DNA of 64,000 bases, taken from NCBI GenBank assembly GCA_964567675.1, contig CAZMNP010000074.1:2923-66922 (forward strand), in the 5' to 3' direction. The notes under the pieces were generated by a model. It was not told the origin of the DNA, did no database searches, and saw only the letters and a list, made by a program, of their open reading frames with translations. Of the stretch, positions 5,054-32,125 are shown piece after piece (the first letter of the stretch is position 1; each line of letters begins with the position of its first letter). This DNA is from an uncultured Actinomycetes bacterium (GTDB lineage Bacteria > Actinomycetota > UBA4738 > HRBIN12). The position numbers and the translations under genes were made by a program.

Positions 5054-6019
5054 TTGGGCCTCATCTGCCTCTCCCCCGCGCTCGCCGACACGAAGCAGGA
5101 GCTCGACCGGGCGAAGGCCGAGCTGGCGGCGATCCAGGCCGATCTGGACCGAGCCACTGCCGCGTGGAACGCCGCGATGACCCGCCTGAACCAGACGAAG
5201 TCGGAGATCATCGCGACCCGCGTGCGGATCTCCGACGTCGAGCGAAACCTCGAGCGGATCGACGCGCGCCTCGCCAGGCGTGCGGTCCTGGCGTTCACGA
5301 CCGGACCGGCGGGCACGATCGACCTGTTGCTGTCCTCCGGCTCCTTCGTCGAGTTCTCCGACCGATTGGAGTTCCTCGGAAGCGTCGCCCAGGACGACGT
5401 CGACCTCGCGCTCGAACGGCAGGTGGCGCAGGCGGAGCTCCGGCGGCAGCGTGGGGACCTGCTCTCGCTCGAACAACGCCAGGTCGAGACCGCCGGCCAG
5501 TTGAACGCGGCGCGAGAGAGCATCGACGCGCGGTTCCAGAACTACCAAGACCGGGTCGCGGAGCTCACGAGGAAGTACAACGCCGAACAGGCCGCCGTAC
5601 GAGAGCTCAACATCATCGGGCAGACGCCGGTCTCCAGCGGGATGATCCAGCGCTGTCCGGTGGCCGGGCCGAACTCGTTCGTCGACTCCTTCGGCTGGCC
5701 TCGCGTGGGCCACACCCACCAGGGGATCGATCTGATCGCTCCCTACGGGACACCGATCGTCGCCGCCCACCCGGGCTCGGTCTCGAGGAGCTCGAGCTCC
5801 TCGGGAGGGCTCCAGGCCTATGTCTACGGTTCCGGCGGTTACACCTTCTACGCGCACCTGTCGAGCTACGGGGCCAGCGGGAGCGTCGCAGCGGGCACGG
5901 TGATCGGGTACGTCGGCAGCACCGGGAATGCCGGCAGCACGAACCACCTCCACTTCGAGCTGCACCCGGGCGGGGGAGCAGCCGTCAACCCGTACCAGCT
6001 GCTCCTCGCGGTCTGCTGA
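5054..6019 (+). CDS. secreted M23-family metallopeptidase with N-terminal coiled-coil
   Basis: The C-terminus has the M23 signature (HQGIDLIAPYGTPIVAAHPG ... HLHFELH). The N-terminal half is a coiled coil (ELDRAKAELAAIQADLDRA..). A signal-like segment reads upstream in frame (FLVLALVLGLICLSPALA). An AAGGAGG RBS lies at 4991-4997. The true start may therefore be 15-50 nt upstream of the listed TTG. Confidence 0.7.
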   Translation: MGLICLSPALADTKQELDRAKAELAAIQADLDRATAAWNAAMTRLNQTKSEIIATRVRISDVERNLERIDARLARRAVLAFTTGPAGTIDLLLSSGSFVEFSDRLEFLGSVAQDDVDLALERQVAQAELRRQRGDLLSLEQRQVETAGQLNAARESIDARFQNYQDRVAELTRKYNAEQAAVRELNIIGQTPVSSGMIQRCPVAGPNSFVDSFGWPRVGHTHQGIDLIAPYGTPIVAAHPGSVSRSSSSSGGLQAYVYGSGGYTFYAHLSSYGASGSVAAGTVIGYVGSTGNAGSTNHLHFELHPGGGAAVNPYQLLLAVC

Positions 6020-6119
6020 GCGGCCGCGGGCTGGTTCGAAGGCTCGGCGGCGAGTTCCCAGCCGGGCGGCGCGCTACGATTCCCCCGACCGCAGAACCCG
6101 TCCATCTCCAGGAGCGCTC

Positions 6120-6647
6120 GTGAGCGACCAGGCGAACCGCAGGATCGACCGGATCCGCCAGCCCGAGTTCGTGACGGGCCTCCCCGAGCTCTCCCTCGAC
6201 GAGCTCCGGGAGCGCCGCGACGTCTGTCTGGCCGAGCGCGAGTACCTCTCGCTCCTGCGACGCCTGGTCCAGGGTCGTGCCGAGATCCTTCGCGCCGAGA
6301 TCGAACGCCGGGGGGCCGGCGGCGACGGGGAGCCGCTCGTGGACCGGCTGGCCGAGATCCTGTCGGGGGAGATCCAGGGGCCTTCCCGTGGCGAGGCCGT
6401 CCGGGTCGCGATGCCGGAGGAAGAGATGCTCCTCGCGCGCCGGCGGGTGGAACGGCTGGTGGCCGATGCCGGACTCTCGGACCCGGGAGCGCTGGATGAC
6501 GACCGCCTCGCGAAGGCGGTCGAGGTGCTCGCCAGCGAGGAGCGAGAGGTGTCCGAGTCCCGGGGCGCCGTCCACTCGGCCCTGGACGCCGTTCAGGACG
6601 AGCTCAAGCGCCGCTACAAGGACGATCCCTCACTCGTCCTGACCTGA
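6120..6647 (+). CDS. coiled-coil protein, possible RsiG-like c-di-GMP-binding anti-sigma factor
   Basis: I chose the GTG at 6120 (VSDQANRRIDRIRQPEF..). The protein is predicted helical. It carries two degenerate copies of the RsiG E(x)3S(x)2R(x)3Q(x)3D motif (SLLRRLVQGRAE and EREVSESRGAVHSALD). The next gene encodes an HD-GYP phosphodiesterase. Confidence 0.45.
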   Translation: MSDQANRRIDRIRQPEFVTGLPELSLDELRERRDVCLAEREYLSLLRRLVQGRAEILRAEIERRGAGGDGEPLVDRLAEILSGEIQGPSRGEAVRVAMPEEEMLLARRRVERLVADAGLSDPGALDDDRLAKAVEVLASEEREVSESRGAVHSALDAVQDELKRRYKDDPSLVLT

Positions 6648-6823
6648 GCGACTCCCTCGATCGGGGGATGCGGCGCAGGCCGGTCGACCGAAGGGCGGTC
6701 CGCCCGGGGGACCCCACAGGACCAATCGGTTTGGCTCCTGCGGCCTATGGACCCGGCCGACCCAGATCGTCACCCTGAACCGGCTCCCGGCGTCTTCGGG
6801 AGCGGTAACGTGCGGCCCCAATC

Positions 6824-7597
6824 ATGAAAGACACGACGCGCTTCCCCGCGGCGCCGGTGGTCCACGCGGATCCCGAGCTGCCGGCAGTCCACGAGCAGTT
6901 GATCGTGTTCGCCCGGGAGCTCGGCGACCTTTACCGGCTCGAGCGATCTCGGTCCGCCGAGCTCGAGCGGGTGCTCGAGAGCCTCCAGGAGACCTACATC
7001 GCGACGATGAAGTCGCTCGCGCAGGTGATCGAGGCCAAGGACCGCACGACCCGAGGCCATCTGGACCGGACGCAGGCCTACGGTCTGGCTCTCGCCCGCC
7101 GGATCGCGCCCGAGCTGCTCGCGACGCCGAACCTCGGGTACGGCTTCTTCCTGCACGACATCGGCAAGGTGGGAGTGCCCGAGCAGATCCTCTGCAAGGA
7201 AGGACCGCTCACCAGCGAGGAATGGACGGTGATGCGGAACCACCCCGTCGTCGGTGCGCAGATCGTCGCCCCGATCGCGTTCCTCACCGGAGCCGTGGAG
7301 CTGATCCGGCACCACCACGAGCGCTTCGACGGGAGCGGGTACCCCGACGGCCTCCGCGCTGAGGAGATCCCGCTCGCCGCTCGCATCTTCGCGGTTGCCG
7401 ACTCGTTCGACGCCATGACGAGCGACCGGCCCTACCGCGGTGCGATGCAGGTCGACCGCGCCCTGGCCGAGATCGGCGGAGGGGCCGGGACCCAATTCGA
7501 CCCCGAGGTCGTGCGGGTGTTCGTCCGCATGATCGGCGAGGGGCCCGAGACGGCGAGCGAAGAGGACTTCGCCGCCGCGCTCTGTCAGGCGGGCTGA
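6824..7597 (+). CDS. HD-GYP domain phosphohydrolase (c-di-GMP phosphodiesterase family)
   Basis: The HD motif is present (GFFLHDIGKVGVP), as is the GYP motif (HHERFDGSGYPDGL). Confidence 0.8.
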   Translation: MKDTTRFPAAPVVHADPELPAVHEQLIVFARELGDLYRLERSRSAELERVLESLQETYIATMKSLAQVIEAKDRTTRGHLDRTQAYGLALARRIAPELLATPNLGYGFFLHDIGKVGVPEQILCKEGPLTSEEWTVMRNHPVVGAQIVAPIAFLTGAVELIRHHHERFDGSGYPDGLRAEEIPLAARIFAVADSFDAMTSDRPYRGAMQVDRALAEIGGGAGTQFDPEVVRVFVRMIGEGPETASEEDFAAALCQAG

Positions 7598-7635
7598 CCG
7601 CCGCTCCGGAACCACGACCCCGATAGGCTTCGAGC

Positions 7636-8619
7636 ATGCCTTCCGCGGTGCCGCTCGTGCGCGTCGTCCGTTCCGGGTTCGAGGAGAGCGTGCACCTCGG
7701 TCACGTCGCCGTGTGCGACGCCGATGGCCGGCTCGTGGCGGCCGCCGGCGACCCGAACCGGCTCGTCTTCGCGCGTTCCTCGATGAAGCCGCTGCAGGCA
7801 GCGGTCTCCATCCGGCGGATCCCGGCGGCGCTCGCCGACGATCTCGTCGCCGTGGCGTGCGGTTCCCACAACGCGGAGCCCGACCATGTGCGCGTCGTCC
7901 GCCGCCTGCTGCGGGCCGGAGGCGCGACCGAGTCCATGTTGCGGTGCCCTGAAGCGTTCCCGTCCCGCACCGAGGACGCCATCCGGGCTGGGAAGGCACG
8001 GCGCGTCTTCTACAACTGCTCGGGCAAGCACGCCGCGATGCTCGCGGCCTGCATCGGTGAGGGCTGGCCCGTCGAGACCTATCTCGAGCCCCGCCACCCG
8101 CTCCAGCGCGAGATCCTTCGAGCGGTGCGCCGGGGGACGGGCGTCGACACCCCGGCCATCGGCATCGACGGGTGTGGTGTCCCGGTCCACGGCGTGCCGC
8201 TCTTCGCGATGGCGACCCTGTTCGCGCGCCTTGCCCGGCCGGATCGGTTGGGTGGCCTCGAGCCCACGGCCTCCCGGGCGGTCGCCGCCATGCGAGCACA
8301 CCCGTTCCTGGTCGCCGGGACCGGCCGGAGCGACACCCAGCTGATGGCGTCGGCTCCGCGCATCGTGTCGAAGGTGGGCGCCGAGGGGTTGCACTGCGCG
8401 GGCGTGCTCGATGAGGGGTTCGGCGTGGCGGTGAAGATTGCCGACGGCGGCGACCGGGCGGCCGGATCGGCCCTCGTCCGGGTGCTTTCGCAGATCGGCG
8501 CCATCGGCGAAGAGGAGCTCGGCCGGCTCTCGTCCGTCGCGCGCCCGCCGGTGCTCGGCGGAGGGCGGCCCGTAGGTGAGATGGTCGCCGAGTTCCGGCT
8601 TCGGCGCCCGCGAGCGTGA
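7636..8619 (+). CDS. asparaginase-II-family protein (PF06089-like)
   Basis: Family-typical segments are present (SSMKPLQA, YNCSGKHAAMLAAC, GIDGCGVP). Confidence 0.65.
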   Translation: MPSAVPLVRVVRSGFEESVHLGHVAVCDADGRLVAAAGDPNRLVFARSSMKPLQAAVSIRRIPAALADDLVAVACGSHNAEPDHVRVVRRLLRAGGATESMLRCPEAFPSRTEDAIRAGKARRVFYNCSGKHAAMLAACIGEGWPVETYLEPRHPLQREILRAVRRGTGVDTPAIGIDGCGVPVHGVPLFAMATLFARLARPDRLGGLEPTASRAVAAMRAHPFLVAGTGRSDTQLMASAPRIVSKVGAEGLHCAGVLDEGFGVAVKIADGGDRAAGSALVRVLSQIGAIGEEELGRLSSVARPPVLGGGRPVGEMVAEFRLRRPRA

Positions 8620-29763: not shown

Positions 29764-30543
29764 CTACGCCAGCGACGCGCGCCACGACCGGCCGCTCACG
29801 CCCGGCGACGCGGGCGGTGACGAGGCCAGCTCTTCGGTGATCCAGACCTCGTCGAAGCGAGCGACGTCGACCGTGAGCTTGATCAGCACGGAGCCGCCCT
29901 TCGGCACGAACATCTCGCCGATCGGCTCGAACACGCCCTGGTCGCCGAGCCAGACCTGATACGCGTGTCCGGGCTTGGGCTCGGGACACAGGTCGGCGAC
30001 GAGGTAGAACCGCCGGATGTCGGGCGCGGCGACGCCGACGAAGGAGGCCGATGCGCTCCCCTCAGCGTCGACGTTCACCGGGCTCACACCGGGTGAGCTC
30101 ATCACGGACAGGAGCTCGAGCGCGAGACTGCGGTCGTCCTGAGCCTCCGAGGCGCGGTCCGCCATCACGAACGAGAGACCGCCCATGGCCACGAGGGCGA
30201 CGACGCCCACCGCGAGGGCGGCGACGAACGACCCGCGTCTGAGCGGGACACCAGGGATCTGTCCGATCCCGCGATGGATCCTTCCAAGCACGAGGTCCGG
30301 AGGCGATACGGGATCCGCGGCGAGCGCGAGCTCACCGGTCACCCTCTGGAAGTCCGAGACGGTTCGCAGGCAGGTGGGGCACGTGGGGACGTGGTCGACG
30401 AGGAGGAGATCCGCCTCGGCGGCGTCCTGCTCGGAGAGCGTGTGCAGCGCGTGGCCGGCGAGCAGTTCCTCGATCCGTTCGTGGTCGGGGCCGGTTCCGG
30501 AGCCCGTTCCCCGGCCGGTTCCCGGGTCAGCGCCTTGGCTCAC
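29764..30543 (-). CDS. zinc-binding anti-sigma factor (RskA/ZAS-like) with TM helix and extracytoplasmic domain
   Basis: The HxxxCxxC motif is present (HVPTCPTC), with a TM helix (FVAALAVGVVALVAMGGLSFV). It lies immediately downstream of an ECF sigma gene. Confidence 0.75.
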   Translation of the reverse strand: MSQGADPGTGRGTGSGTGPDHERIEELLAGHALHTLSEQDAAEADLLLVDHVPTCPTCLRTVSDFQRVTGELALAADPVSPPDLVLGRIHRGIGQIPGVPLRRGSFVAALAVGVVALVAMGGLSFVMADRASEAQDDRSLALELLSVMSSPGVSPVNVDAEGSASASFVGVAAPDIRRFYLVADLCPEPKPGHAYQVWLGDQGVFEPIGEMFVPKGGSVLIKLTVDVARFDEVWITEELASSPPASPGVSGRSWRASLA

Positions 30544-31110
30544 TCAGTCCTCCCGGTCGAGAACGCGCCGCATCTTGCGCATCGCGGCGAGCGTTCGGGT
30601 CTTCACCGTTCCCACCGGGATGCCGAGTGTTTCGGCGATCCGGGTCTGCGTGTAGCCGCCGAAGTATGCCAGCTCGATCACCTGCCGCTGCTCCGGGGGG
30701 AGGATCGTGAGGGCCTCACGGACCTCCCTGCGACGGACGCTCAGGTACGCGCCGTCGACGACCTCGTCCGCAACATCTTCGCCACGAATGGGCTCCAGGT
30801 TCGAGGCCCGCTCGGTTCTCCTGCGGAGGCGTTCCTCGCGCCGGACCACGTCCACCGCGCGGTGATGGACCAACGACAAGAAGAAGGAGCGGAACGCGCC
30901 CCGGGCAGGGTCGAAGGCCTCCGGCGCCTTCCACAGCGCGAGGAAGGCGTCCTGGACGACCTCCTGGGCGAGGGCTTCCTGGGCGGTGATCCGAAGCGCG
31001 AGGCCGTAGGCCGACGAGCCGTACCGGCGGTAGATCTCGTCGAAGGCTTCGCGGTCGCCGTGCCTGACCCGGCGGTGGAGGTCGAGATCGTGGATCTCTC
31101 CCTCGCTCAT
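30544..31110 (-). CDS. ECF (sigma-70 family) RNA polymerase sigma factor
   Basis: The sigma-2 region (VQDAFLALWK) and the sigma-4 HTH (YFGGYTQTRIAETLGIPVGTVKTR) are present. Confidence 0.85.
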   Translation of the reverse strand: MSEGEIHDLDLHRRVRHGDREAFDEIYRRYGSSAYGLALRITAQEALAQEVVQDAFLALWKAPEAFDPARGAFRSFFLSLVHHRAVDVVRREERLRRRTERASNLEPIRGEDVADEVVDGAYLSVRRREVREALTILPPEQRQVIELAYFGGYTQTRIAETLGIPVGTVKTRTLAAMRKMRRVLDRED

Positions 31111-31174
31111 CCGGCTTTCCTACCACATAGGTGCGGCGGCTCCGTGGCCGACCGAGGCGCTAGCATGCCCGCCC

Positions 31175-31411: not shown

Positions 31412-31435
31412 ACGCTCGCAGAGGCGGATTCACGA

Positions 31436-32125
31436 ATGCACTATCATCCGGCCGTGAGCCAGCGGCCGATCCCCGAGGCCACCGTCGGGCGACTCCCCAT
31501 CTACCTTCGGGCGCTCGTCGAGATCGCCGAGAACGGCTCGACCACCGTGTCGTCCGAGGCGCTCGCGGCGGCCTCGGGCGTGAACTCGGCGAAGGTCCGC
31601 AAGGACCTCTCGCACCTCGGCTCGTACGGGACTCGGGGGGTCGGCTACGACGTCGCGTACCTGATCCATCAGATCCGGCGCGAGCTCGGCCTGACGCAGC
31701 ACTGGCCCATCGTGATCGCCGGGATCGGGAACCTCGGGCACGCACTCGCCAACTACCGGGGCTTCGCCGAGCGAGGCTTCCGAACGGCGGCGCTCGTCGA
31801 CAACGACCCGGGCAAGATCGGGGAGGACGTCGCAGGCCTCGCGATCCGTCCGCTGGAGGACCTGCGCGCGATCGCGCGGGAGCACGAGACGCTGATCGGC
31901 GTCATCTCGACGCCGGCCGTCGCCGCCCAGCAGGTCGCCGACGCCATGGTGGAAGCCGGGATCCGATCGATCTTGAACTTCGCGCCGGCGGCGCTCGCGG
32001 TCCCCGAGGGCGTCTCGGTGCGGAAGGTGGACCTGGCCGTCGAGCTCCAGATCCTCACGTACTACGAGCAGCGCAATGCCGCGCTCGTGGACGTGAAGCG
32101 GCGGGGCCGAGCCCAGACCGCCTGA
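31436..32125 (+). CDS. rex: redox-sensing transcriptional repressor Rex
   Basis: The protein has an N-terminal wHTH (RLPIYLRAL..) and a Rossmann NADH domain (IVIAGIGNLGHALANY). Confidence 0.85.
   Translation: MHYHPAVSQRPIPEATVGRLPIYLRALVEIAENGSTTVSSEALAAASGVNSAKVRKDLSHLGSYGTRGVGYDVAYLIHQIRRELGLTQHWPIVIAGIGNLGHALANYRGFAERGFRTAALVDNDPGKIGEDVAGLAIRPLEDLRAIAREHETLIGVISTPAVAAQQVADAMVEAGIRSILNFAPAALAVPEGVSVRKVDLAVELQILTYYEQRNAALVDVKRRGRAQTA

Follow-up and report, generated by a model that had tools for sequence, protein, structure and literature searches.

The 64,000-nucleotide stretch of contig CAZMNP010000074.1 analyzed here (hereinafter, the window) comes from an uncultured, high-GC Actinomycetota lineage and encodes, one after the other on the forward strand, a protein of the RsiG family and a predicted HD-GYP phosphodiesterase, with genes for an M23 peptidase and a class-3 L-asparaginase on either side (Table 1). 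To our knowledge, RsiG is the only anti-sigma factor that is armed by cyclic di-GMP (c-di-GMP). Streptomyces and Rubrobacter are the organisms in which its function has been elucidated. The original prediction, made from the letters of the window, described the two central genes as a compact c-di-GMP signalling module. An open-reading-frame check found both genes where they had been placed; the first product comprises 175 rather than 176 amino acids (aa), the earlier count having taken in the stop codon. The GC content at third codon positions (0.83 for rsiG and 0.90 for the HD-GYP gene) fits real genes in a window of 70% GC, and the gap between the two genes is 176 nucleotides (nt).

Table 1. 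Features of the rsiG-HD-GYP locus; positions are those of the window
Feature	Position	Strand	Remarks
M23 peptidase gene	5054..6019	+	N-terminal PcsB/EnvC-like coiled coil; 100 nt 5' of rsiG
Shine-Dalgarno-like AGGAG	6110..6114	+	5 nt 5' of the rsiG GTG; direct sequence reading
rsiG-family gene	6120..6647	+	GTG start at 6120, stop at 6645-6647; 175-aa twin-motif protein
Helix alpha-1 motif, residues 40-55	6237..6284	+	R40, S44, R47, Q51, E55; E39 and E41 flank R40
Helix alpha-5 motif, residues 141-156	6540..6587	+	E141, S145, R148, H152, D156
Post-rsiG motif CTCCCTCGATCGGGGGA	6652..6668	+	Family consensus ~GTCCCCCG-N4-CGGGGGA[T/A]
Conserved ungapped block 5' of the HD-GYP gene	6729..6780	+	Fixed spacing in a 35-locus alignment; ~55 nt
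HD-GYP phosphodiesterase gene	6824..7597	+	ATG start; 257 aa; predicted c-di-GMP hydrolase
Class-3 (Rhizobium etli-type) L-asparaginase gene	7636..8619	+	38 nt 3' of the HD-GYP gene

Domain, sequence and fold searches agree on the assignment of the 175-aa protein to the RsiG family, as had been proposed for this helical protein. The Pfam model RsiG-like (PF22802) matched it with 67.6 bits (cut-off 27; E=7.7e-19) in two stretches, which represent the two halves of an internal duplication. Among all PDB chains, the top phmmer match was Streptomyces venezuelae RsiG ("AmfC", 6pfj_T; E=1.7e-12), with residues 21-170 of the window protein aligned end to end with residues 22-168, followed at ~1e-4 (2e-4 to 4e-4) by the single-motif Rubrobacter RsiG chains, which aligned with helix 1 only. 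Altogether 2026 homologues of the protein were found; PF22802 was present in all 120 among the matches listed, and some homologues carry the NCBI names 'RsiG family protein' or 'aerial mycelium formation protein'. An AlphaFold2 model built with 54 homologues (predicted local distance difference test score 86, predicted template modelling score 0.81) contains helices at residues 26-64, 70-82, 100-117 and 127-168 as well as, at 86-96, a loop of low confidence; this is the RsiG architecture of an antiparallel alpha-1/alpha-5 coiled coil with short helices and a loop in between. When this model was compared to the PDB with Foldseek, the sole match at E<=0.001 was 6pfv_T (E=8e-5), with 6pfj_T second (E=2.5e-3); both had a probability of 1.0 and template modelling scores of 0.55-0.63, and every other match had E>0.2. 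We conclude that the 175-aa protein is a genuine twin-motif member of the RsiG family, with an anti-sigma role predicted by analogy.

Of the characterized family members, S. venezuelae RsiG (AmfC, Vnz19430; 6PFJ, 6PFV; Gallagher et al., 2020, PMC7005675) is the only strong fold match, with ~34-35% identity to the window protein. It is likewise a twin-motif monomer, with a matching helix order and a flexible central loop, and the two proteins share Q51, D156 and the Ser and Arg residues of the two repeats, along with most of the sigma-2/sigma-4 contacts. The window protein differs in being shorter (175 aa) and in lacking the long N-terminal extension. The Rubrobacter homologues that had been cited belong to the same family and share the helix-1 motif region, but they are of another type: in Rubrobacter radiotolerans and in Thermoleophilia, RsiG carries a single motif and forms homodimers (7LQ2-7LQ4; Schumacher et al., 2021, PMC8325347), whereas the window protein, which is Streptomyces-like and predicted to be monomeric, contains both helices in one chain. 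Given that R. radiotolerans and Thermoleophilia are unicellular and non-sporulating, the RsiG switch is not tied to sporulation (PMC8325347).

RsiG was scanned for in one genome per species, which yielded at least 537 loci; the best 80 of these were analyzed, with flanks of 8 kb on each side of rsiG that total ~1.3 Mb. This set consists of 53 loci (L004-L056; hereinafter, the clade) with an RsiG identity of 61-80%, all from species-level metagenome-assembled genomes (MAGs) of uncultured Actinomycetota, and 27 distant loci (RsiG identity 37-44%) from Frankiaceae/Mycobacteriales MAGs, Streptomyces, Embleya and others. RsiG-family genes thus reach a large uncultured actinobacterial lineage, with at least 53 species-level genomes.

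Both binding repeats had been quoted correctly (S44-LL-R47-RLV-Q51-GRA-E55 and E141-REV-S145-ES-R148-GAV-H152-SAL-D156), and in the HMMER alignment with 6pfj_T their residues fall column for column on the S. venezuelae motif: R40/S44/R47/Q51/E55 opposite E64/S68/R71/Q75/D79 in helix 1, and E141/S145/R148/H152/D156 opposite E162/S166/R169/Q173/D177 in helix 5. Six of the S. venezuelae c-di-GMP contacts are identical (S44, R47, Q51, S145, R148 and D156). The helix-5 repeat fully fits the pattern E(X)3S(X)2R(X)3[Q/H](X)3D, His being an accepted replacement of Gln in the RsiG motif (PMC8325347). In the S. venezuelae protein, Arg and Asp confer base specificity and the R71A/D79A/R169A/D177A variant loses binding; three of these four essential residues are identical in the window protein and the fourth is changed from Asp to Glu. 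Judging from these residues, c-di-GMP binding is probably retained, possibly with an altered affinity.

The repeats had also been called degenerate. The departures from the canonical motif are real, but they do not look like decay. When the motif columns were tabulated in 81 loci, with helix 1 covered in 52 related species-level genomes, the helix-1 form E39-R40-E41...S...R...Q...E was found in 51 of the 52 (the exception, L054, has Leu at position 40). Being fixed to this extent, the variant is a signature of the lineage and points to selection rather than erosion. Helix 5 of the clade reads E...S...R...[I/L/M/F/H]...D, with E, S and R invariant; the outgroup proteins from Frankiaceae, Streptomyces and other lineages retain the canonical Glu and Asp. 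Compared to S. venezuelae RsiG, the clade has thus replaced the helix-5 Gln with His or an aliphatic residue, the helix-1 Glu with Arg and the helix-1 Asp with Glu. Across the entire family (797 clusters at 50% identity, E<=1e-3), residues were counted in 123 full-length representatives (P0121-P0270). The Ser and Arg positions hardly vary (position 44, Ser in 121; position 47, Arg in 123; position 145, Ser in 117; position 148, Arg in 118), and the remaining ones admit alternatives (position 40, Glu in 98, Arg in 16 and Leu in 4; position 55, Asp in 109 and Glu in 10; position 152, His in 51, Gln in 29 and Leu, Phe, Ile or Met in 37). The natural RsiG motif, as it appears from these counts, is looser than the published one, with Ser and Arg as its fixed core.

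The next gene encodes an HD-GYP phosphodiesterase, as originally proposed, on the concordant evidence of a domain match, motifs and solved homologues. Pfam HD_5 (PF13487) is the only domain found in the 257-aa protein (124 bits, cut-off 27.2, residues 64-229), and the solved homologues include V-cGAP3 (5z7c, 2.9e-39), PmGH (4mcw, 5.6e-34) and PA4781 (4r8z, 1e-29), with the PmGH and V-cGAP3 alignments spanning the whole domain. The HDIGK, HHE and GYP motifs are present, and none of twelve residues (D73, H79, H111, D112, K115, H140, H164, H165, E166, D169, G172 and Y173) varies among 43 orthologues. The RxY[K/R] motif corresponds to R202-P-Y204-R205, with R202, Y204 and R205 kept in 41 of the 43; according to a survey of HD-GYP domains, RxY[K/R] goes with c-di-GMP specificity, and RxxQ or RxxN with specificity for cyclic GMP-AMP (cGAMP) (Galperin and Chou, preprint). 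The enzyme, with its catalytic residues intact, is accordingly predicted to be a c-di-GMP hydrolase. It shares the full catalytic core, including the metal ligands, HHExxDGxGYP and RxY[K/R], with PmGH (4MCW), PA4781 (4R8Z), V-cGAP3 (5Z7C) and S. venezuelae HdgA. Unlike these characterized enzymes, the window protein has no GAF, REC or transmembrane input; sensor and receiver domains are likewise absent, and only ~60 helical residues precede the catalytic domain. Such stand-alone HD-GYP proteins are rare (Galperin and Chou, preprint). In two clade loci (L005, 8746-9502, and L029, 8678-9330), the HD-GYP match is split across two frames, so that the gene is a pseudogene with a frameshift or the long-read assembly of the MAG is in error; if real, these would be cases of loss in progress.

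Of the 12 contact residues in the complex with sigma-2/sigma-4 of S. venezuelae WhiG (PMC7005675), mapped via alignments, eight are kept (S. venezuelae residue first: R54/R30, R57/R33, I80/I56, V95/L73, L99/L77, D142/D121, I183/L162 and Y187/Y166) and four are changed (Y69/L45, R58/D34, V138/A117 and L143/P122). The loop contacts H110 and R115 of S. venezuelae RsiG are not kept by position; the loop of the clade, GPSRGEAV, and the N-terminal RRIDRI segment are near-invariant, as interaction surfaces would be. The kept contacts and the near-invariant segments support, short of proof, an anti-sigma role. Searches with tblastn for a WhiG/FliA gene, with Escherichia coli FliA (identical to 6PMI_F) and residues 47-274 of S. 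venezuelae WhiG as queries, gave zero matches in the window, bearing out an absence that had been noted before, and no significant match within 8 kb on either side of rsiG in the 80 loci. Because rsiG and whiG are ~1.5 Mbp apart in S. venezuelae (PMC7005675), so that the genes are unlinked there as well, the absence of whiG from the window is uninformative; whiG is present in all 134 rsiG-bearing genomes surveyed in the literature, and the partners of RsiG are sigmas of the WhiG2 clade. The only sigma factor found in the window by tblastn and reading of translated open reading frames (ORFs), with Pfam run on part of these ORFs, is of the extracytoplasmic function (ECF) type (30544-31119, reverse strand). 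With its Sigma70_r2, Sigma70_r4 and ECF domains, it is unrelated to WhiG and forms a pair (29764-31119, reverse strand) with an adjacent RskA-type anti-sigma gene, followed by a Rex-type redox repressor gene (31412-32125, forward strand).

By analogy with the S. venezuelae system and that of R. radiotolerans, we propose, with moderate confidence in the mechanism as a whole, that RsiG holds its sigma factor when loaded with c-di-GMP and that the HD-GYP protein lowers c-di-GMP and so frees the sigma. Specifically, helices 26-64 and 127-168 of the RsiG monomer would pair as an antiparallel coiled coil, and a c-di-GMP dimer would be clamped by the two S-x2-R-x3-[Q/H]-x3-[D/E] repeats. In this loaded state, the protein would sequester a WhiG2-type factor of the sigma-28 family encoded elsewhere in the genome, and hydrolysis of c-di-GMP by the neighbouring enzyme would favour release of that sigma. 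Given that the HD-GYP protein has no input domain, control would be exerted through its expression, for which a promoter-like region of its own is available, or through protein contacts. There is a precedent for a phosphodiesterase that is local to the RsiG-WhiG node, namely S. venezuelae RmdB, which binds WhiG (PMC13232838). RmdB, too, is a c-di-GMP phosphodiesterase that antagonizes RsiG, as is proposed for the window enzyme, but it is a membrane GGDEF-EAL protein unlinked to rsiG, whereas the HD-GYP protein is soluble, stands alone and is encoded beside rsiG.

The gene neighborhoods, read across the loci by tblastn with the window proteins, bear on whether this adjacency reflects a dedicated coupling. 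The order is constant: ATP sulfurylase, usually the M23 peptidase, rsiG, sometimes HD-GYP, the class-3 asparaginase and a GT4 glycosyltransferase. In 38 of the 53 clade loci, the gene directly 3' of rsiG, in the same orientation, is that for HD-GYP, and the asparaginase gene then follows. The order rsiG-HD-GYP-asparaginase was also found in three distant MAGs that are Frankiaceae/Mycobacteriales-like (L058, L061 and L062), in which RsiG is ~41% and HD-GYP ~52% identical to the window proteins. There is no HD-GYP gene elsewhere in the flanks of the 80 loci; all 41 that were found directly follow rsiG. In 17 Streptomycetaceae loci (Streptomyces, Embleya, Yinghuangia and others) no HD-GYP gene was found after rsiG, and in the remaining lineages rsiG is followed by the gene for the asparaginase, for an Eis-like acetyltransferase, for EamA or for some other unrelated protein. 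As for other c-di-GMP enzymes in this position, Pfam searches of ten ORFs 3' of rsiG from other lineages returned only Eis-like GNAT, EamA, HTH, beta-helix and hydrolase domains. The literature searched on RsiG, WhiG and HD-GYP contains no mention of a linkage of rsiG with HD-GYP or asparaginase genes.

Several observations weigh against the proposed mechanism. First, 15 of the 53 clade loci, on at least three separate branches, have no HD-GYP gene, and in these the asparaginase gene starts 6-46 nt 3' of rsiG. In the neighbor-joining tree of RsiG, the loci that lack HD-GYP form one group of nine and several scattered tips, and this scatter implies roughly three to five losses. Second, it is the asparaginase gene, not the HD-GYP gene, that is the most universal downstream neighbor of rsiG: nearly all clade loci have it next after rsiG or HD-GYP, as do 15 of the 27 distant ones, many Streptomyces among them. 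Third, wherever the HD-GYP gene is present, a spacer of 135-290 nt with conserved elements lies between it and rsiG, against only 20-65 nt between it and the asparaginase gene. Fourth, a search for WhiG-type promoters, T(A/C)AA-N15-17-GCCGA, that allowed one mismatch detected none 5' of rsiG or of HD-GYP. Fifth, no GGDEF diguanylate cyclase is encoded in the window and only one in the flanks of the 80 loci. Finally, the helix-1 repeat departs from the canonical motif, with R40 in the Glu position (E41 is adjacent) and E55 in place of Asp, so that the affinity for c-di-GMP, or even the ligand, could differ.

The first and third of these points also speak for an alternative in which the adjacency is inherited synteny without dedicated coupling. 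The HD-GYP protein would then be a general c-di-GMP sink, transcribed with the asparaginase and glycosyltransferase genes, that affects RsiG like any other phosphodiesterase. We regard this as a tentative alternative, appreciably less probable than the coupled mechanism. Because ATP sulfurylase, M23, rsiG, asparaginase and GT4 are all syntenic, the adjacency within the clade counts as one historical event. The pairwise distances of RsiG, HD-GYP and the asparaginase correlate, which is consistent with co-inheritance, and the correlation is no higher for RsiG and HD-GYP than for RsiG and the asparaginase; furthermore, HD-GYP proteins of Streptomyces have no developmental phenotype (PMC6205966). 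Synteny on its own does not readily accommodate the recurrence of the same order in a second lineage with such a distant RsiG, the exclusive placement of the otherwise rare HD-GYP genes directly after rsiG, or the unusual nature of a sensor-less HD-GYP protein, which needs some other control. On balance, the gene orders show that the association of rsiG with HD-GYP is real and recurrent, yet it can be traced to just one or two events in evolution. The linkage is helpful yet dispensable, as follows from the loss of the enzyme in about a third of the related genomes. Of the compact module originally envisaged, the recurrent adjacency stands, in the clade and in the three distant MAGs; the notion of a unit derives from a shared ligand and synteny, and is weakened by the spacer with its promoter-like block, the tighter spacing to the asparaginase gene and the losses.

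Given that the 135-290 nt spacer carries conserved promoter-like elements, co-transcription of the two genes is doubtful: separate transcription of the HD-GYP gene, probably together with that for the asparaginase, seems more likely than an rsiG-HD-GYP operon, with read-through possible. One of these elements is the ungapped block (Table 1), in which A6747, T6748, A6772 and T6776 are near-invariant in 35 loci and which can be read as a putative -35 element TGGACC (6748-6753), a 17-nt spacer and a putative -10 element CACCCT (6771-6776). In the subgroup of the window, the block is preceded by a GGGCC-N4-GGCCC palindrome. Shortly after rsiG lies another element, possibly a weak hairpin or else a sequence motif. 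Of the 43 spacers between rsiG and HD-GYP, 30 contain GGGGGA, whose background frequency is 0.36 per kb, and roughly half of the motif-bearing spacers retain the GGGGGA half alone, which argues for a sequence motif and not a simple terminator stem.

Other interpretations of the spacer were tried and rejected. The post-rsiG palindrome is not enriched elsewhere in the window, as a repeated operator would be, and a consensus scan of 5800-7900 detected neither a canonical sigma-70 promoter nor an intrinsic terminator. The loosely defined WhiG-type pattern has 76 matches across the window and is uninformative at 70% GC; CCGAT[AG] is conserved in some relatives, without a correctly spaced -35 element. 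Rfam searches for riboswitches and other known RNAs gave zero matches at gathering thresholds in the whole window and only chance-level ones in 5900-7000 (E up to 10). RNAalifold found no consensus structure in 35 spacers, and the single-sequence fold has z=0.86. A small ORF that would start from GGGGGATG in the spacer has its ATG in only about one-third of the relatives.

The remaining alternatives concern the ligand pocket. Mean identity to the window proteins inside the clade is 71% for RsiG and 64% for HD-GYP; between the clade and the Frankiaceae-like group the relation is reversed (41% versus 52%). This could reflect accelerated evolution of RsiG on the clade stem, which fits a rewiring of its motif, or else a later move of the HD-GYP gene. 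An unlikely elaboration of the coupled mechanism is that the RsiG pocket has been re-tuned, by the displaced Glu, the Asp-to-Glu change and an aliphatic stacking residue, and that the dedicated input-less HD-GYP protein acts locally on the RsiG-sigma complex; such local action could involve direct recruitment, as RmdB is recruited via WhiG, or the pair could operate with an altered ligand affinity, stoichiometry or nucleotide identity.

The least probable scenario, and one that we consider quite improbable, is that the rewired pocket (Arg in place of Glu, with Glu displaced by one position, the helix-1 Asp changed to Glu and a mostly hydrophobic stacking residue in helix 5) has changed or lost c-di-GMP binding, so that RsiG is constitutive or binds another nucleotide such as 3'3'-cGAMP, which is also degraded by some HD-GYP proteins: three of the ten motif positions are off the published motif jointly across the clade, RsiG diverged unusually fast on the clade stem, though it is better conserved inside the clade, and the best solved homologue of the enzyme, V-cGAP3, is cGAMP-specific, but the two Ser, D156 and the two Arg by which the central guanines are read show no variation (except for Asn or Glu at position 156 of two clade members), E55 can still pair with the Watson-Crick edge of guanine, the stacking position is hydrophobic or His in many family representatives as well, and the enzyme has the RxY[K/R] motif of the c-di-GMP type, not the cGAMP-linked RxxQ or RxxN, with a comparable E-value to the c-di-GMP enzyme PmGH.

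With the gene of a c-di-GMP receptor adjoining that of a sensor-less HD-GYP protein in two lineages, this locus is a simple natural test case for the dedication of a phosphodiesterase to one effector, the question of "local signalling" that RmdB has posed. Both families are already known, NCBI already labels homologues "RsiG family protein" and the linkage, unreported in the searched literature, is dispensable, so the advance is a modest, incremental extension.

Among the neighbors of the two genes, the asparaginase matches PF06089 (342.7 bits) and PDB 8cly (E=7.6e-46) and keeps the SxxK, NCSGKH and DGC motifs. The M23 peptidase matches Pfam Peptidase_M23 with 64.4 bits and, weakly, CC_PcsB; its gene is located 5' of rsiG in most clade loci and also, with weaker matches, in L058, L061, L062 and L064. 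A link between cell-wall remodelling and the RsiG locus is possible, with the peptidase treated here as context rather than as a component of the system. Further 5' of the locus, inspection by eye identified a GlnR-like regulator and genes for sulfate assimilation (PAPS reductase and ATP sulfurylase). Most of what remains of the window, at ~33000-62300, encodes, again by eye, housekeeping functions of the respiratory chain, namely cytochrome bc1, subunits of an aa3 oxidase, heme A/O synthase and the nuo operon for NADH dehydrogenase I.

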